Notes under the pieces: generated by a model
Told to the model about the DNA's origin: nothing
The model's database searches: none
What the model saw: the letters and a program-made list of their open reading frames with translations, nothing else
Source: an uncultured Patescibacteria group bacterium
Lineage (GTDB): Bacteria > Patescibacteriota > Microgenomatia > UBA1400 > PJMF01
DNA length: 64,000 bases
Reading direction: 5' to 3'
Assembly: GCA_905478415.1 (NCBI GenBank)
Contig: CAJQIG010000002.1
Location: 120,834-184,833, forward strand
Made by a program: the position numbers and the translations under genes
Shown here: in pieces, positions 32,087-39,859 of the stretch
How the letters are laid out: every line of letters begins with the position of its first letter
Position numbering within the stretch: the first letter of the stretch is position 1

Positions 32087-35000
32087 ATGAGTAAAAAAGT
32101 TGCCCGTCACATAGGACGAAGGGTGGCTCTGTTTTTGATGGCAGGGTCGTTCCTCTGCTTTTTTGCAGCTGGGTTCATCTTTTGGTATGGCCCTGGTAGT
32201 ACTGCTCAAAACCAAGAAGATGCTTTTTCCAATTCTGGAAAAGTTGCAGGAGTTTCCATTGATTCGTTTGGTAACACAGTTGATGCTCGAGGAAAAATCA
32301 AGGGCGTTGTTTCCCCCGAAGAAGCAGATAGTTTAGTTTTTCGAATAAAAACAGTTTTTAACGATACGGTTTCACTTGGTGAAGCTTTGGTTACAGGGAA
32401 TCTTGAAGTCGGCGGAGATTCTGTAGTTGATGGAGATGCAACGGTAGTAGGCAACTCCACCTTGGATGGTGATGTAACCGTTTCTGGAAACTCAAACTTT
32501 GCTGGGACGGTTTCTATTGATGGCAACTTAGTTGTTCAGGGAGGAGAGGTCGAGGCTTCAAATGTGATTTACTCAGTTCTGACTGGGAGCGGACTGACTC
32601 TCTCAGGAAATCAAAACATTACACTTACAAACTCAGATCTGGGTTCATCCCAAAACATTTTCAAAAATTTTAAGATAGAATCAACAACGCTCTCGGCGAA
32701 TTCAAACGATGACACACTGACTTTTACCGGAGGAGCAGGTGTTTCTCTTTCAAATGATGGTAAAACAATTACAATTGCTGCTGATAGTAATGAGCTCAAT
32801 GTCTCTGGGTGGGATGTGGGTACCGGTACCGTTTTCTTAACTACCTCAACTGACAACGTCGGAATTGGCACAACTAGCCCAACAAGTAAGCTCGATGTTG
32901 TCGGTGGATTAAAGGTTTCTTCTGGAGCAACTATCAACTCAGGAATTAATAATACTAGCGGAGGTATTACTAATGCTGGAGTTATCACCGGAGGAACGGG
33001 TTTTACTTCTTCTGGAACAATTACTCTTTCAGGTTTATCAACAGGTGTTCTACAAAGCAGTTTTGGAGGAGTACTTTCCTCTGGAGCTTTAAATATTGCA
33101 GGAGGAGGTAGTTATGTAACTGGTATCTTACCAGTTACTAATGGTGGTACCGGTTTGAATACGGTTACTGCTGGAGATTTACTCTATGCTAGTGGAGCTG
33201 ATACTTTAGCAAGTCTCGGTATTGGTGGAGATGGTCAAGTCTTGACTGTTTCTGGTGGTACTGTAGCTTGGGGAAGTGCTGGTGGTAGTGGTCCCTGTGC
33301 AACTTGTCTTATTACCGACCCCGGTACAACTCAAGTTATTACTCCAAGTGCGGCGACTGCAACAGGGCTTTCAATTAAGCAGGCAAGTAGTGGTTCGGTT
33401 GATGTCTTTAATGTGACTTCGTTTGATGGTTCTACTAAGTATTTTAGAGTAGACAGTTCTGGAAATGTATTGCTTGGAAGTGGAGTGACTTCGGCAATGG
33501 GAAACCTTTCGATTTCACCAACTGGCTCTGATCCGATTGTTATTGCACCGTTCGATGGTTTTAATGCTGCCCCCTTTAGTGGCACCGTGACTTCAGAAGA
33601 TTTAACAGCAGACAGAACTTGGACATTCCCTAACGAAAGTGGCGTTGTTTGTTTAGCCACTGGAAACTGTGCTGGCACGTCTGCTGGGATTGGCGGTAGT
33701 GGTACCACTGGTTACTTGACTAAATGGACTGATACTTACACCGTTGGAGCTTCAGTTTTATATGATAATGGTACGAATATTGGTATTGGTACTGCTACAC
33801 CGACAAGTAAGTTACATGTTGTTGGAACAGTTAACCTCAATGGAGTGACAACCATTGGGGCTGCCTTGACAGCAAGTTCAACGCTGAATGTCACAGGAAC
33901 CGCTACCTTAAGTAGTAGCTTACAAGTCGATGGCAGCACCGATCTCAACGATACCCTCGAGGTGACTGGTGTCACTACTTTGGGTTCGACACTCGGTGTG
34001 ACAGGGCAGGGAACATTCGGAGGTAATGTTGGCATTGGGAGCCTCTCTCCAAGTCAAGCACTCGACGTTTTAGGTGCGATGAGATTTGGTACTGCAGGTG
34101 CATATAACACGCTCAATACTTCTGCAGCTGTATCTGGTCCGACCGGTGATTTGTACTGGGGAGATAGAAGCGTTTGTGATAGTAGCGGCAACTGTGCAGG
34201 GACCTCAGCGGGCCTTGGTGGATCTGGTACAACGAACTATCTTGCCAAGTGGAGTAGTACTTATGGGCTTGGAAATTCTTTAGTTTTTGATAATGGAACT
34301 AATGTGGGTATTGGTTCTACTTCACCTACAGCAACACTTGATGTAGTAGGAAGTTTGAGATTAAACGATGGTAGCTACTCAGCTCCGTCACTCACCTTTA
34401 GAACTAACTCAGATGCTGGTTTTTACGAAGAGCCACTCGGTGGGGGATATGTTGCTTATGCTTCAGGAGGCCAAGCTCGGTACTTTTTCACTGCCAACTC
34501 ATTATCTGGAAGGGACACGGGTTCATTCTATTTACTTCGTGCCCCAGGTGATGCAACGACACCGACCTTTTCATTTGTTGGTGACACCAACACTGGTATG
34601 GCTCGAGCTACTGCAGATGAACTAACTCTTATTACTGGTGGAAGTGAGCGACTCCGCGTTAATGCATCTGGAAATGTTGGGATAGGTACCAGTGCTCCGC
34701 TTGGAAAGTTTGATGTTCAAGGCGCAGCTGTGGGTAAGGCATTAGTAATTCTGAACGAAACAGGTAACCAGGCGATTTTTGCAGCTTCAGCAAGTGGTGC
34801 TACAAAGTTTTTGATTGCGAATGATGGCAATGTCGGTATTGGTTCCACTTCTCCAGGCTATTCACTAGACACAGTCGGCACAACAAGATTGCAAGGCACC
34901 ACCACCGGTGGAGGAAACGGACTGTATGTGAATGATGATAGTCAGGTTGGTATTGGAGGGACACCAGTTGCGTTTCACACCCTTACGGTCGATACTTCTT

Positions 35001-36730
35001 CGAGTAGTTGGCCAATTCTATTTAATACAGATAGTAGTGATTTCAACAACCTGCTGAAGCTTCAAAATAGTTCTAGTTTAGGAGCTGATAGAGGTTCGAA
35101 AGTAGAGTTTCTTGGAACTTCTGGAGTAATTACTGGATATACCGGTATTGCTTTGGAGGGTGCCAGTTACGATAATTCATACATGGCTTTTGCTACTCGG
35201 GGAAGTGGAACAGTTGCTGAACAGATGCGGATTAACTCTTCTGGAAATATTGGCATAGGTACTACTGCTCCACTAGGAAAATTAAATCTTGAGGGTGCAG
35301 CTGTGGGTAAAGCTTTGGCAATTCTAAATGAGACAGGAGACCAGGCTCTTTTTACAGCTTCAGCAAGTGGTGCTACAAAATTTGTTATTGCTAATGACGG
35401 AAACGTGGGAATTGGGACAACGACTGCAAACGCTCAGCTTGATGTAAATGGTACTATTTACTTTGGTTCTCAAATTGTGGCTCGTGATGACACAAATACA
35501 AAGTTTGTCTTTGGTAATGACCAGATAGAGTTGCAAGCGGGCGGTCTTCGATTACTTACTCTGTCAGAGTCAGGCTCCTTTACAGGAGATGTTACGGGGA
35601 ACTTAAATAAACATAATGTTGACTTCAATTGGTTTGGTGACACTAATTCTGACTTTTTTACGCTTGATGCTGGGGCAGAGAATGTAGGAATTGGTACTGC
35701 TACTCCGGGCCAAAAACTCGATGTCGTCGGCAGCGCTCGCTTTAGTGCGGTTGGCAGTGGTTCCTACAGCGCAGATCTTAATCTCACTGCTGATGGCACA
35801 CTGACTACGAGTTCTTCTGATATTCGTTTGAAAGAGAACTTCAAAGAATTAAATGATGCTGAAATTTTGAGTAAAGTCTTAACTCTTAAAACCTACAAGT
35901 TTGATTGGATCAGTGGAGGCCAAAGTGATATTGGTATGATTGCTCAAGAGGTGCAGTCAATTTTTCCCGAGATCACATTTACTAATGCTACCGATGGATA
36001 TATGGGTATTAACTACTCCAGGTTACCATCATTGTTGGTAAATGCGATCCAAGAGCAACAGTCACAAATAAATAACATCTCTTTGAAGATAGATGCTGAG
36101 GGCCAGGTACTTGGTCAAGCAACGAATGTAGCCGTGATTCAAGAACCAAGTGTTGAGGAATCCTTGCTTCCTTACGCAGAGATTTCACCATCGCTCTGGA
36201 AGTTTTTACAAGAAGTTGTCTTTACAGCTCGAACCAGCTTCCAGTCAAGCGTCGAGTTTATGAAGGATGTCGCCTTTAAAGGCGCAGTCACTCTTAATGC
36301 TGATACCGTTGGACGCTTTGTCGTTCCAGCAGGAGCAACTCGAGTACGTGTTTCGTTCACTACTCGTTTCAAGCAGATTCCAACTGTTTACTTGAGTGTT
36401 CGATCGGACGTTTCTGGAGGCTATACTCTAGAATTAGTTGATGCAACAGGTTTTGTAGTTGTTCTTGAACAGGGACAACCAGATGCTGTTGTTATTGATT
36501 GGTTAGCGCTGCTCAGCGCTGGTGACGGTGCTGCAACGGTGCAGGTGCTTGAGTCAAAACCTATTTCCACAAGTCCAGAACCTACGCCGGTCGATGTTAT
36601 AGAATCAACTCCATCTCCAACTCCAATACCTAGTCCAAGTTCGACTCCGACATCCACACCAACGCCGAGTGCATCTCCAAGCCCAACAGATGTACCAGCT
36701 TCTTCCACTTCGGCAATAGTGACACCATAA
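32087..36730 (+). CDS. Giant (1547 aa) membrane-anchored, fibre-like surface protein with tail-fibre-like repeats, an internal Peptidase_S74 intramolecular chaperone domain, a ~210-aa extension and a Pro/Thr/Ser-rich tail
   Basis: N-terminal signal anchor (RVALFLMAGSFLCFFAAGFIFWY). Many GNVGIGT(S/T)TP..KLDV.G repeats. S74 domain SDIRLKENFKELNDAEILSKVLTLKTYKFDWISGGQSDIGMIAQEVQSIFPEI...YSRLPSLLVNAIQEQQSQINNISLKI. C-terminal PSPTPIPSPSSTPTSTPTPSASPSPT. Confidence 0.8.
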   Translation: MSKKVARHIGRRVALFLMAGSFLCFFAAGFIFWYGPGSTAQNQEDAFSNSGKVAGVSIDSFGNTVDARGKIKGVVSPEEADSLVFRIKTVFNDTVSLGEALVTGNLEVGGDSVVDGDATVVGNSTLDGDVTVSGNSNFAGTVSIDGNLVVQGGEVEASNVIYSVLTGSGLTLSGNQNITLTNSDLGSSQNIFKNFKIESTTLSANSNDDTLTFTGGAGVSLSNDGKTITIAADSNELNVSGWDVGTGTVFLTTSTDNVGIGTTSPTSKLDVVGGLKVSSGATINSGINNTSGGITNAGVITGGTGFTSSGTITLSGLSTGVLQSSFGGVLSSGALNIAGGGSYVTGILPVTNGGTGLNTVTAGDLLYASGADTLASLGIGGDGQVLTVSGGTVAWGSAGGSGPCATCLITDPGTTQVITPSAATATGLSIKQASSGSVDVFNVTSFDGSTKYFRVDSSGNVLLGSGVTSAMGNLSISPTGSDPIVIAPFDGFNAAPFSGTVTSEDLTADRTWTFPNESGVVCLATGNCAGTSAGIGGSGTTGYLTKWTDTYTVGASVLYDNGTNIGIGTATPTSKLHVVGTVNLNGVTTIGAALTASSTLNVTGTATLSSSLQVDGSTDLNDTLEVTGVTTLGSTLGVTGQGTFGGNVGIGSLSPSQALDVLGAMRFGTAGAYNTLNTSAAVSGPTGDLYWGDRSVCDSSGNCAGTSAGLGGSGTTNYLAKWSSTYGLGNSLVFDNGTNVGIGSTSPTATLDVVGSLRLNDGSYSAPSLTFRTNSDAGFYEEPLGGGYVAYASGGQARYFFTANSLSGRDTGSFYLLRAPGDATTPTFSFVGDTNTGMARATADELTLITGGSERLRVNASGNVGIGTSAPLGKFDVQGAAVGKALVILNETGNQAIFAASASGATKFLIANDGNVGIGSTSPGYSLDTVGTTRLQGTTTGGGNGLYVNDDSQVGIGGTPVAFHTLTVDTSSSSWPILFNTDSSDFNNLLKLQNSSSLGADRGSKVEFLGTSGVITGYTGIALEGASYDNSYMAFATRGSGTVAEQMRINSSGNIGIGTTAPLGKLNLEGAAVGKALAILNETGDQALFTASASGATKFVIANDGNVGIGTTTANAQLDVNGTIYFGSQIVARDDTNTKFVFGNDQIELQAGGLRLLTLSESGSFTGDVTGNLNKHNVDFNWFGDTNSDFFTLDAGAENVGIGTATPGQKLDVVGSARFSAVGSGSYSADLNLTADGTLTTSSSDIRLKENFKELNDAEILSKVLTLKTYKFDWISGGQSDIGMIAQEVQSIFPEITFTNATDGYMGINYSRLPSLLVNAIQEQQSQINNISLKIDAEGQVLGQATNVAVIQEPSVEESLLPYAEISPSLWKFLQEVVFTARTSFQSSVEFMKDVAFKGAVTLNADTVGRFVVPAGATRVRVSFTTRFKQIPTVYLSVRSDVSGGYTLELVDATGFVVVLEQGQPDAVVIDWLALLSAGDGAATVQVLESKPISTSPEPTPVDVIESTPSPTPIPSPSSTPTSTPTPSASPSPTDVPASSTSAIVTP
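35268..35725. repeat. Cassette ~88-90% DNA-identical, in inverted orientation, to 7215-7860 of giant gene 1
   Basis: See feature 7215-7860. Protein level: GKLNLEGAAVGKALAILNETGDQALFTASASGATKFVIANDGNVGIGTTTANAQLDVNGTIYFGSQIVARDD...DFNWFGDTNSDFFTLDAGAENVGIGTATP versus the same string with conservative changes in giant gene 1. Confidence 0.7.
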
Positions 36731-37974: not shown

Positions 37975-38934
37975 ATGACTTTTTTCCCGCTTCTTCAAAA
38001 AGCTCTCATAGAGTGTTCTCAAGAGTCACTCGAGGTGAAGGCGAGTGCTTTATTTGGCAGTTTGCTCTTGGGGTTGAACCTGGATAGAGCTGCTGAGCTA
38101 CAGTCTCAAATTAAAGTTACAGGGACGTTATATTTTTTCGTGATTTCTGGATTACATATCTCAATTTTGGCTCAAGCAGTAGTACAGTTGTTTATTGCCA
38201 TGAGGATTCCTAAGAGCCTTCATAAGGGGCTTTCATTTTTAGTTTTGGGCATGTATGGCGGGTTAATCGGTTTTTCAATTCCTGTTTTGAGAACAGTGAG
38301 TATGCGGTTCCATTCTGTGATTTCTGCCTTTCTTAAAAGATCAACTTCTGCGCAGTATGTGTTTTTTTTGAGTGTCATACTTGTTGGACTACTTGCTTTT
38401 TTTCAAACAGAGAAAACAGTGTCTTCAATTTCATTTCAACTATCTTATGGAGCTGTAGCGGGAATTCTTTTTTTGCTACCGAAAGAGAACTTTACTAAAA
38501 AATCAACTGGTTTTTCTCGAGTAGTCACTAGTTTTATTCGGAAAAATATATCGACTTCGGTGGCAATAAATATGTTATTAGTACCGTTGCTTTTACATTA
38601 TTTTGGCTCTTGGAGCCCCTTGAGTATTGTTTTTTCGGTTGTACTTTCTCCCTTGATTACACTTGTAGTAGTGCTTGGTTTTGGCTTTTTAGCCTGGGAA
38701 TTGGTGTCTCTAGGGCTTTCCTTAAGGAGTGAATACCTCTTGAAAGTGTTTGCTGGGGTTTTTCAAGTGTGTGTTGATATGCTTGTTTTTTTGTTAGATT
38801 GGTTTGCGGGCATTTCTTGGCAGTTTTCTGCAGATTTTTCGGTTACATTTCTAGTTTTGTATTATTTCTGCCTGGTAGGAGTTGTTGTTCTCTTTAAATA
38901 TGTCAAAAAAGTCTCTTTTTCTCCCTTTCTATAG
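37975..38934 (+). CDS. comEC: ComEC/Rec2 competence-domain (membrane channel) portion; continues into 38882-39859 in another frame
   Basis: Polytopic membrane protein carrying the competence-domain signature ALFGSLLLGLNLDRAAELQSQIKVTGTLYFFVISGLHISILAQ. Confidence 0.7.
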   Translation: MTFFPLLQKALIECSQESLEVKASALFGSLLLGLNLDRAAELQSQIKVTGTLYFFVISGLHISILAQAVVQLFIAMRIPKSLHKGLSFLVLGMYGGLIGFSIPVLRTVSMRFHSVISAFLKRSTSAQYVFFLSVILVGLLAFFQTEKTVSSISFQLSYGAVAGILFLLPKENFTKKSTGFSRVVTSFIRKNISTSVAINMLLVPLLLHYFGSWSPLSIVFSVVLSPLITLVVVLGFGFLAWELVSLGLSLRSEYLLKVFAGVFQVCVDMLVFLLDWFAGISWQFSADFSVTFLVLYYFCLVGVVVLFKYVKKVSFSPFL

Positions 38935-39859
38935 ATACCTACTCACTTTGAGTGTGGTTCTGTGTGTAGCTGTTGGTATGCAGTACCCATCAGAGGGAGT
39001 CACCGTAGCTTTCTGTGATGTTGGACAAGGAGATGCGATACTCCTTTCATATCAATCGACACAACTTCTTATTGATGCTGGTCCAGGCGAAGAAGTGCTT
39101 GTTTGTCTAGAGGAAGCACTCCCATATTGGGATAAAACGATCGAATTTGCTATTGCTACGCATCCAGATTTAGATCATATTGGTGGTTTTCCTCTGGTAG
39201 CAGAACATTATTTTCTTCAGAAGATGCTCTATCTTCCGCTCGAGCCAGAGTCAAAAGTAAGTTACCGTTTCTACGAAATGCTTGCAAATATACAGTCTGA
39301 AGGTGCGGTTCTTTTGATTCCTACTCGAGGAGAAAGGTATCGGGTTGGTAGTTTGATATCTTTTGAGGTGATCAGCCCATTTTTGCCGCTACGCCTGGAA
39401 AAGGGGTGTGAAAAGAGCATCGCCGAAACCTACTTATGGGATAAAAATGGATGTTTTTTTAACCGAAAAAAGGGTAGTCTAATAGATAAAAACAACCTAT
39501 CGATAGGTATAAAATTAGAAATAGGACCAGTGGTGTTTTTAATGATGGCAGACCTTGAGGAAGAGGCAGAAATGGCAATGCTGAGGAGTCAAATGCTACA
39601 TCGAGTAAATGTGTTAAAAGTGGGGCACCATGGGTCTAAATCAAGCACAACACAACCATTTATCGAGGTAACGAGACCCGAAGTTTCAGTGGTTTCTGTT
39701 GGCAAAAATAACGCTTATAATCACCCCGCACCTCAAGTAGTGCAACGATTAGAAGATATCGGCAGTACTGTATTGAGGACAGATACTCTGGGGACAGTCG
39801 AGTTTCTGGTTCAAGGCGATGTGTTTTGGAGTAAAAATCATAGCTATTACTGGAAATAA
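38882..39859 (+). CDS. comEC: ComEC/Rec2 metallo-beta-lactamase domain portion (+1 frame relative to 37975-38934, 53-nt overlap)
   Basis: VAFCDVGQGDAILLSYQSTQLLIDAGPGEE...IATHPDLDHIGGFPLV...LKVGHHGSKSSTT (ComEC MBL-domain motifs). Confidence 0.75.
   Translation: MLFSLNMSKKSLFLPFYRYLLTLSVVLCVAVGMQYPSEGVTVAFCDVGQGDAILLSYQSTQLLIDAGPGEEVLVCLEEALPYWDKTIEFAIATHPDLDHIGGFPLVAEHYFLQKMLYLPLEPESKVSYRFYEMLANIQSEGAVLLIPTRGERYRVGSLISFEVISPFLPLRLEKGCEKSIAETYLWDKNGCFFNRKKGSLIDKNNLSIGIKLEIGPVVFLMMADLEEEAEMAMLRSQMLHRVNVLKVGHHGSKSSTTQPFIEVTRPEVSVVSVGKNNAYNHPAPQVVQRLEDIGSTVLRTDTLGTVEFLVQGDVFWSKNHSYYWK

Follow-up and report, generated by a model that had tools for sequence, protein, structure and literature searches.

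Giant protein 2, a predicted MAT-like surface fiber related to phage tail fibers, is encoded by a Patescibacteria, Pacebacteria-like cell and carries a Peptidase_S74 domain that does not form the C-terminal end. The domain is followed by 212 amino acids (aa 1336-1547), which contain a conserved module with an H-type-lectin-like domain, and this order recurs widely in other proteins. The reading that is considered rather likely is that of an N-terminally anchored, probably trimeric surface adhesin fiber from which the S74 cut would detach a lectin-bearing cap. The gene is located in a window of 64,000 nucleotides, which is the whole stretch of DNA that was analyzed. Its features have the following positions in the window:

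32087..36730, plus strand: whole gene of giant protein 2, 1547 aa, 156.5 kDa, pI 4.3, from the list of open reading frames and the translation
32123..32185, plus strand: hydrophobic segment, aa ~13-33, a signal-anchor or signal peptide, with five basic residues just before it
32264..32866, plus strand: conserved N-terminal domain, predicted to be extracytoplasmic, aa ~60-260, common to S74-type and non-S74 relatives
32867..35815, plus strand: fiber shaft, aa 261-1243, with nine N[VI]GIG[TS]xxPxxxL motifs, a duplicated unit, and three close Cys pairs
35816..36091, plus strand: Peptidase_S74 intramolecular chaperone/auto-processing domain, aa 1244-1335, including a C-terminal helix at aa ~1310-1331
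35816..35833, plus strand: predicted catalytic motif S1244-D-I-R-L-K1249, with the predicted scissile bond between Ser1243 and Ser1244
36092..36196, plus strand: variable linker, aa 1336-1370, pLDDT of 46-58 in the model, length-variable and gappy in alignment A3
36197..36307, plus strand: short beta-helix-like stretch, aa ~1371-1407, with the pattern WxFxxEVVFxAxxxFxxxVxFxxxVxFxG
36308..36526, plus strand: H-type-lectin-like beta-sandwich, aa ~1408-1480, of which aa 1420-1474 are covered by the alignment to the Pfam H_lectin profile
36554..36727, plus strand: Pro/Ser/Thr-rich low-complexity tail, aa 1490-1547; these last 58 aa contain 28% P, 26% S, and 19% T

The Peptidase_S74 domain and the fiber shaft

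Giant protein 2 belongs to Peptidase_S74 (PF13884, MEROPS S74) on the basis of the HMM search, the profile, and the fold. The match to PF13884 was well above the threshold (E value of 1e-12, 48.6 bits compared with a threshold of 22) and covered profile positions 1-55 of 58, and the fold agreed with that of solved chaperone domains. The first-pass annotation had assigned this family from the peptide SDIRLKENF...NNISLKI, which was found exactly at aa 1244-1335 and far beyond chance. It had placed the domain at 35811-36095, where a domain is indeed located, but this span was 4 to 5 nucleotides too wide and out of frame compared with the true one, 35816-36091; with a frame offset of 5 nucleotides, its literal translation runs into stop codons.

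The catalytic Ser and Lys residues expected for such a domain were present on alignment and invariant among the relatives, in alignments A2 (28 sequences) and A3 (29 sequences) as well as in 62 of 62 internal S74 domains with the lectin module downstream. The scissile position was transferred from the work on endoNF, which is cleaved N-terminally of S911, and on MrfA (PMC3828593). The dyad is needed for cleavage because the S767A and K772A mutants of MrfA remained uncleaved (PMC3828593), as did the S782A mutant of the self-cleaving Bdellovibrio protein Bd3182 (PMC10769870). Invariance of the dyad was therefore taken as selection for catalysis, on the assumption that folding does not depend on the dyad. 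A cut before Ser1244 is predicted to yield a fragment of aa 1244-1547 with 304 aa and 32.5 kDa, close to the ~300 aa that had been proposed for it. The proposal that S74 is internal here and C-terminal in phages also held, since the S74 domain was the protein end in the PHROG tail-fiber profiles, and most of the 120 relatives listed had only ~82-140 aa between the Ser residue and the end of the protein.

The nine N[VI]GIG motifs of the shaft span aa 257-1199. The duplicated unit of ~190 aa was found at aa ~850-960 and ~1040-1150, and the close Cys pairs at positions 404/407, 522/528, and 697/703. A phmmer comparison of the shaft with the PDB sequences identified the Bdellovibrio MAT fiber Bd2133 (8OND; E value of 4.6e-9, three stretches), followed by 8OML (E value of 4.8e-4), both aligning to the shaft via SERxRIxxxGNxGxGTxAPxxxLxV. 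Capping loops of the type V-G-G/N-pi-x-x-P-x-x-x-L are the hallmark of MAT shafts (PMC10769870). Judged by its sequence, the shaft of giant protein 2 is homologous to the beta-helical MAT shafts with their capping loops. The fiber nature, which had been deduced from NVGIGTxTP repeats, thus gained support from nine such motifs and from homology to crystallized trimeric MAT fibers. The orthologs vary in length, with 1547, 2122, and 2290 aa.

The module downstream of S74 and its distribution

The sequence downstream of S74 had been described as a further ~210 aa with a Pro/Thr-rich tail. Length and tail were correct, but these residues are not anonymous and represent a widespread conserved module that ends in the H-type-lectin-like domain. 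The beta-helix-like stretch was conserved in alignments A3 and A5 and extended in the monomer model with a pLDDT of 86-98. It may form a trimeric beta-helix; the top match of the A5 profile in the PDB was a chlorovirus repeat protein and was not significant.

The H_lectin profile PF09458 matched giant protein 2 over positions 2-66 of 67 with an E value of 0.078 and 13.6 bits, which is below the threshold of 24, and gave sub-threshold matches in 24 of 29 relatives, with a best E value of 1.2e-5. When a profile of the lectin module was compared with the PDB sequences, the Helix pomatia agglutinin appeared near the top, with an E value of ~0.3 that is not significant alone. The domain of giant protein 2 displays the beta-sandwich fold of H-type lectins. 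The knob downstream of S74 is a candidate for an H-type-lectin-like domain and a putative glycan binder. The tail of giant protein 2 lacks a sorting motif and does not end in a hydrophobic stretch, and the tails of the orthologs are P/T/S/E-rich and not homologous to it.

An exhaustive search for the post-S74 module yielded at least 421 cluster representatives (clusters at 50% identity, E value of ≤1e-3), nearly all with the module at the C-terminal end of proteins of 1000-5500 aa. S74 was directly upstream of the module in 69 of the best 150 of these 421 clusters, and the S74-then-lectin order is kept in dozens of clusters. The exhaustive search was needed for the giant relatives, and a word-indexed search with S74 plus the extension gave only short S74-terminal proteins. 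Divergent copies of the module also follow S74 in P0003, P0010, P0023 (Moraniibacteriota), and P0067. Other members possess the same lectin module downstream of a Peptidase_G2-like putative auto-processing module, and in the non-S74 relatives, the lectin-like module is located directly at the fiber end.

Giant protein 1, the other giant protein named in the first-pass annotation, had been suggested as a possible carrier of a degenerate S74 domain. None was present, degenerate or otherwise, and a comparison of the six-frame open reading frames of the window with the S74 and extension profiles gave no second S74. The C-terminal end of giant protein 1 contained instead the same type of lectin-like module in a divergent form, as indicated by a weak match in an unfiltered profile search; phmmer gave no match of this end to the retrieved proteins.

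Proposed assembly and competing explanations

Giant protein 2 would be exported by the Sec pathway via the N-terminal signal-anchor. Outside the cell, and without ATP-dependent chaperones, the C-terminal regions of three chains would associate, and S74 would act as nucleus and register for a beta-helical shaft that folds from the C-terminal end toward the membrane, as the behavior of the S74 family suggests. After formation of the trimer, the Ser1244/Lys1249 dyad should cut before Ser1244, for which its strict conservation argues, leaving a fiber of ~120 kDa up to aa 1243 plus the C-terminal piece. The cap may provide extra trimerization and aid glycan docking during assembly, and it may also or instead be a detachable lectin tip, the removal of which would expose the end of the shaft; this is the least certain step. 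The released piece would be larger than the ~95-120-aa chaperone of every characterized S74 protein and, because S74 continues into the linker, the beta-helix-like stretch, the knob, and the tail, would resemble a small lectin-tipped fiber of its own.

Loss of the lectin module would be odd, however, as the non-S74 relatives and giant protein 1 must keep the module attached at the fiber end. Their same or related lectin-like modules without a preceding protease point to a fixed tip. The lectin-like fold, moreover, is similar to that of the receptor-binding domains at the distal end of phage tailspikes and R-pyocin fibers, and the beta-sandwich and lectin tips of MAT fibers are binding ends (PMC10769870). 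S74 may accordingly be only a trimerization clamp, or may stay tightly bound after the cleavage event, with the knob as a permanent distal glycan-binding tip. This explanation is the strongest competitor but nevertheless unlikely: both dyad residues are invariant in all 62 such proteins, and the C-terminal part separates after cleavage in every characterized S74 protein, which are endoNF and MrfA (PMC3828593), Bd3182 (PMC10769870), and T5 pb1 (PMC4690869).

Very unlikely is release of the fiber, by which the lectin module and the tail would grip the wall glycans of the cell itself, the signal peptide would be removed, and the S74 cut would free the fiber into the medium. In this manner, MYRF and MrfA free their N-terminal part from a C-terminal anchor by an internal S74 (PMC3828593). 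The sequence STA|Q following the hydrophobic segment of giant protein 2 is a possible signal-peptidase site, and this segment may be removed as a signal peptide instead of serving as an anchor. Moreover, Pro/Thr-rich stretches are typical wall-spanning linkers. On the other hand, with ~21 residues, the hydrophobic segment has a length suited to an anchor. It is the sole strongly hydrophobic segment in a Kyte-Doolittle scan (windows above 1.6 only at aa 9-17), and the orthologs have the same N-terminal layout. Giant protein 1 is clearly N-terminally anchored because its single hydrophobic segment follows a predicted cytoplasmic part of ~280 aa, and giant protein 2 has no C-terminal wall-sorting motif. 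Finally, the conserved N-terminal domain parallels the proposed cell-proximal domain of the MAT fibers. It was found by phmmer in at least 20 giant relatives with E values of 1e-62 to 1e-16 and always at aa ~45-280; a separate search gave 7 short matches only, and the AF2 monomer model had a low confidence (pLDDT of 65.9).

The ATP-synthase operon is located upstream of the gene and comEA, comEC, and argS downstream, and this order is kept in three other genomes, from Ca. Pacebacteria, Patescibacteria BroJett025, and another MAG, which were found by a genome-contig scan seeded with five close sequences. A 271-aa neighbor of giant protein 2 shared 51-69% identity across the syntenic genomes. 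Due to the housekeeping neighbors, the gene order conserved in three other Patescibacteria genomes, and the ordinary GC content without deviation, the locus is chromosomal and cellular and not that of a phage, in agreement with the cellular genome assumed before. A protein identical to giant protein 2 is already on record from a 394-kb metagenome scaffold. A scan of the interval between the gene and comEA for terminators and promoters revealed nothing convincing, and an NCBIfam search with giant protein 2 gave no informative match.

The best PHROG family match was a tail fiber with an E value of 8.5e-35. In a tblastn comparison with 50,697 GenBank phage records, 335 records matched the S74 part and none matched beyond it. 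The viral structures of BFVD likewise matched in the S74 part only and showed no S74 plus lectin module, and the IMG/VR contigs matched only the S74 part, which is a weak negative because the patterns were drawn from the S74 region alone. A tail-fiber gene of a prophage, tailocin, or contractile injection system, for which the PHROG tail-fiber families as strongest matches, the typical occurrence of S74 in phage fibers, and the 335 records would speak, is highly improbable in view of the absence of flanking phage, tail, or baseplate genes, the position kept in three other genomes, the N-terminal membrane segment, the ordinary GC content, and a post-S74 module not covered by any phage record or viral contig searched.

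Known fibers and biological meaning

The MAT fibers of Bdellovibrio bacteriovorus are displayed on the surface of the predator and include the S74-type Bd3182 and the non-S74 proteins Bd2133, Bd1334, Bd2439, Bd2734, and Bd2740 (Caulton et al. 2024, PMC10769870). Their hallmarks are a signal peptide, followed by a conserved beta-rich N-terminal domain of ~130 aa, and S74 or an alternative adhesive tip at the C-terminal end (PMC10769870). Giant protein 2 resembles them as a chromosomally encoded, predicted exported fiber of ~1000 aa or more related to phage fibers, with the capping-loop motif GNxGxGTxxPxxxL, the SDxxxK motif in S74, an N-terminal domain conserved within its own family, and variable C-terminal tips, and members occur in predators and symbionts. 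It differs by possessing S74 and a lectin tip in series, a combination absent from PMC10769870, and by the H-type-lectin-like tip itself, whereas the described MAT tips are TNF-like, C-type lectin, novel sandwiches, FGE, collagen-like, or invasin. Its host belongs to the Patescibacteria, a group missing from the MAT survey table (PMC10769870).

With the C-terminal intramolecular chaperone domains (CIMCDs) of phage tailspikes and fibers (K1F endosialidase, 3GW6; T5 pb1, 4UW8 and 8HQZ; GA-1 neck appendage, 3GUD; S16 gp37, 6F45), giant protein 2 shares the Pfam family, the dyad, the fold, and an S74 domain near the end of a long fiber. The phage S74 is terminal, however, and only the chaperone is released, while giant protein 2 continues with 212 residues that include a folded lectin-like domain and has a membrane segment and a cellular locus. 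In the case of the MYRF/MrfA ICA domain (7DC3; PMC3828593, PMC8326128), the MYRF anchor is C-terminal of S74 and a transcription factor is released, but the only hydrophobic segment of giant protein 2 is N-terminal, and no transmembrane segment is located downstream of S74. MYRF and MrfA are also eukaryotic and intracellular, while giant protein 2 is bacterial and predicted to be extracytoplasmic. Compared with the H-type lectins (Helix pomatia agglutinin, 2CCV; discoidin I/II; coral SLL-2) and with the lectin-like domains at the C-terminal end of phage tailspikes and R-type pyocin fibers (7EEA, 4RU4, 6CL6), its lectin-like domain scores below the Pfam threshold and follows a predicted self-cleaving domain.

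Patescibacteria account for much of the diversity of bacteria, and every member in culture lives attached to other microbes (PMC12206443). No description of S74 or tail-fiber-like adhesins in Patescibacteria was found among the papers searched. Recognition and holding of the host by these bacteria are known mainly for the type IV pili of Saccharibacteria. A Pacebacteria-like lineage keeps one or more long fibers at a fixed chromosomal position, apparently built like the fibers of phage tails and those used by Bdellovibrio for prey recognition. The S74-then-lectin order, which recurs across dozens of clusters at 50% identity but not in the phage collections searched, is unusual and widens the S74 architectures beyond a terminal position in phages and MATs and a position before a membrane anchor in MYRF. 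The lectin-like module is a candidate glycan binder with which the ligand of the host could be sought.

Tentatively, S74 may be a predetermined breaking point in bacterial surface fibers of a large class not described before, present in Patescibacteria and also in Hydrogenedentota. This would mean that one polypeptide gives rise to two trimeric products, an anchored fiber with a fresh tip and a lectin-tipped mini-fiber that is free or loosely held. The mini-fiber might enter the surroundings as a soluble factor that binds glycans, or it might break off after contact with the host cell. An auto-processing domain plus a lectin cap would then be a general design for the assembly and arming of attachment fibers in ultrasmall episymbionts.

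The probable fibre and its predicted self-cleaving domain

Two large open reading frames of the window are treated here:
32087-36730, forward strand: giant protein 2, 1547 aa
1976-13645, reverse strand: giant protein 1, 3889 aa

Giant protein 2 is best understood as an N-terminally anchored trimeric adhesin fibre similar to the mosaic adhesive trimer (MAT) fibres of Bdellovibrio, with a Peptidase_S74 (S74) intramolecular chaperone domain predicted to cut itself off. The sole strongly hydrophobic stretch (aa ~13-33), with five basic residues ahead of it, is a predicted signal-anchor or signal peptide. The domain at aa ~60-260, poorly modelled as a monomer, is shared with at least 20 giant relatives, in which it likewise lies near the N terminus. 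The shaft (aa 261-1243) contains an internally duplicated unit, nine N[VI]GIG[TS]xxPxxxL motifs, and three pairs of closely spaced Cys residues. It matched phage tail-fibre families (PHROGs; best E 8.5e-35) and, among PDB sequences, two crystallised Bdellovibrio fibres, 8OML (E 4.8e-4) and, in three stretches, Bd2133 (8OND; E 4.6e-9), with both alignments running through SERxRIxxxGNxGxGTxAPxxxLxV. This aligned motif corresponds to the MAT "capping loop" consensus V-G-G/N-pi-x-x-P-x-x-x-L (Caulton et al. 2024, PMC10769870), and MAT proteins are chromosomally encoded, surface-exposed, trimeric prey-recognition fibres (PMC10769870). The Cys pairs are located at aa 404/407, 522/528, and 697/703, two of them within copies of the element C..(S)GNCAGTSAG[IL]GGSGTT.YL.KW; they may form small disulfide loops, which would fit an extracytoplasmic location.

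The peptide quoted in the first-pass annotation as a phage-type chaperone was recovered exactly, at aa 1244-1335 (nt 35816-36091); the coordinates assigned to it were out of frame and 4-5 nt too wide. PF13884 matched aa 1244-1295 (E 1e-12, 48.6 bits versus a gathering score of 22). The observation is real, and its interpretation is supported, including the internal position of the domain, which is followed by 212 aa. Ser1244 and Lys1249 correspond to a Ser and a Lys five residues on that were invariant in all 62 internal S74 domains with an intact N-terminal part preceding the module described below, in agreement with the expected catalytic pair, while the Arg between them varied (R, T, N, K, S, V). 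Both residues are needed for cleavage of the eukaryotic protein MrfA (mutants S767A and K772A; PMC3828593), and the Ser is needed in Bd3182 (S782A; PMC10769870). Since endoNF is cut immediately N-terminal of the Ser (PMC3828593), the cut in giant protein 2 is predicted between Ser1243 and Ser1244. By this analogy, it would yield a fibre of ~120-124 kDa and a 304-aa, 32.5-kDa fragment, close to the ~300 aa proposed earlier.

The module after S74 and the proposed fate of the cap

The region after S74 is the part of giant protein 2 that departs from known S74 proteins. In most of 120 listed relatives from an indexed search, only ~82-140 aa separate the catalytic Ser from the protein end, and the S74 match also reaches the profile end in phage PHROG profiles. 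When aa 1336-1500 alone served as the query, an exhaustive HMMER search returned 421 cluster representatives at E <= 1e-3 (54 at <= 1e-10), with the match C-terminal in nearly all of them, in proteins of 1000-5500 aa; S74 was located directly upstream in 69 of the 150 best matches. This lectin module consists of a variable linker with low pLDDT, a conserved WxFxxEVVFxAxxxFxxxVxFxxxVxFxG stretch, extended in the monomer model (pLDDT 86-98) and probably a short triple beta-helix, and a beta-sandwich (aa ~1408-1480, pLDDT >90). The sandwich is called H-type-lectin-like because Pfam H_lectin covered nearly its whole profile, yet below threshold (E 0.078, 13.6 bits), gave hits, likewise below threshold, in 24 of the 29 relatives scanned (lowest E 1.2e-5), and because Helix pomatia agglutinin ranked near the top in register, albeit not significantly, when the module profile was compared to the PDB; giant protein 2 thus has the H-type lectin fold with a subthreshold HMM score. 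Pro, Ser, and Thr make up 73% of the final 58 aa, and the low-complexity tails of relatives are unrelated to this one.

Giant protein 1 is a second fibre of this kind. Its ~280-aa N-terminal part contains a Phage_int_SAM-like match (E 3.6e-8). A lone hydrophobic segment (aa ~280-300) comes next, and then ~3500 aa with 21 NVGIG-like motifs; a cytoplasmic integrase-SAM-like domain is an odd partner for a surface fibre. No S74 was found in it, not even the degenerate copy previously considered. In a one-sequence search, the lectin-module profile gave a weak match (15.1 bits; p ~8e-7) to the last ~80 aa of giant protein 1 (...IYVTPVGS...GEFIVGFDEALDTEVQLNWWIVN). Other S74-less relatives outside the window (P0123, P0137, P0140, P0196, P0201, P0223, P0234, and others) often carry a GRVPVKVS..G.I..GD.LT.S..PG.AMKA module ahead of the lectin module. 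Two of four scanned members of this type gave subthreshold matches to Peptidase_G2 (IMC autoproteolytic cleavage domain, PF11962; 22.5 and 17.5 bits versus a cutoff of 25), so the position of S74 may be taken there by an auto-processing domain of another kind. Many giant proteins outside the window that lack S74 (P0129, P0132, P0133, P0148, P0171, and others) have yet another conserved module ahead of the lectin module, ...GIQLFAVD..GSHELRVRDEAGNVTTLSPHNFS...AWAFYSERN..AINADMTKALR.VE.LSGE.L, to which no Pfam match was found.

In the proposed mechanism, S74 would nucleate extracellular folding of the fibre and then cut itself off, taking the lectin-tipped cap away with it. In the main rival reading, the lectin remains on the fibre as its working tip, as the same kind of module ends giant protein 1 and the non-S74 relatives without a preceding protease; this is opposed by the invariance of the dyad and by the behaviour of characterised S74 proteins, whose two parts separate once cleaved. 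A model like that of the eukaryotic MYRF, in which the fibre would be released, is unlikely for giant protein 2. A departing cap may aid trimerisation and glycan docking while the fibre assembles, may serve as a detachable lectin, or, by analogy, may mask the shaft end until its removal; S74 removal has been argued to expose a binding cleft in MAT fibres (PMC10769870).

Genomic setting and distribution

ATP-synthase genes are located upstream of the giant protein 2 gene on the opposite strand, and comEA (SLBB plus HHH), comEC as two ORFs, and the arginyl-tRNA synthetase gene downstream. The gene has a GC content of 42-47% along its length, compared to 37-46% in its neighbours, and an identical protein is recorded on a 394-kb ENA metagenome scaffold. 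Scanning one genome per species for S74 plus the downstream region gave full-length matches in Candidatus Pacebacteria CG_4_9_14 (L008), Patescibacteria bacterium BroJett025 (L010), and three MAGs labelled "Pseudomonadales." In L008, L009, and L010, the fibre gene occupies the same slot, between comEA and the orthologue (51-69% identical) of a divergent gene of 271 aa, with comEC and an argS homologue following comEA in L008 and L009. The fibres of these loci differ in length (1547, 2122, and 2290 aa), and in BroJett025 the gene is present as a tandem pair. Because this slot with its housekeeping neighbours is conserved, the gene is a stable cellular gene as claimed at first, ordinary in GC content, and an origin as prophage cargo is unlikely.

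Several features of these loci were also recorded. The first of the tandem fibre genes of BroJett025 (L010, 2285-7978) is interrupted into ORFs of 1383 and 512 aa, 3 nt apart, the latter with S74 and the lectin end; the break could be an in-gene stop codon or an assembly error. ComEC is encoded by two overlapping ORFs, with the Competence domain in one and the metallo-beta-lactamase domain in the other:
37975-38934, forward strand: ComEC ORF
38882-39859, forward strand: ComEC ORF
The same split occurs in L008 and L009, which suggests a trait of the lineage and not an error of sequencing. The MAGs of L006, L007, and L009, titled "uncultured Pseudomonadales bacterium," carry a Patescibacteria-type locus (in L009 a 282-aa neighbour, giant fibre, comEA, split comEC, and argS homologue), and these labels look wrong.

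Among the named module members, those of Pacebacteria and Patescibacteria are recorded as "hypothetical protein" and those of Hydrogenedentota as "tail fiber domain-containing protein"; in four shorter proteins, of which one belongs to Moraniibacteriota, S74 is also followed by divergent lectin-like modules. No viral S74 plus lectin module was found in IMG/VR contigs (matching only query residues 1-111, with scan patterns drawn from the S74 region), GenBank phage records (335 matching the S74 part alone, none covering 80% of the query), or BFVD structures (top matches aligning 87-150 columns, S74 only). Of the MAT proteins, thirteen have a self-cleaving S74 at the C terminus, among them Bd3182, for which a cut at S782 was demonstrated, and eight have beta-sandwich or lectin tips there instead (PMC10769870); the survey table of that study contains no Patescibacteria lineage and no S74-plus-tip architecture. 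A literature search found no paper that describes adhesins with S74 or of tail-fibre-like type in Patescibacteria. Bacterial phage-like surface fibres with S74 are a kind already known from work of 2013-2024; new are the architecture of S74 followed by an H-lectin module, how widely it is spread among uncultured lineages, and its occurrence in Patescibacteria.
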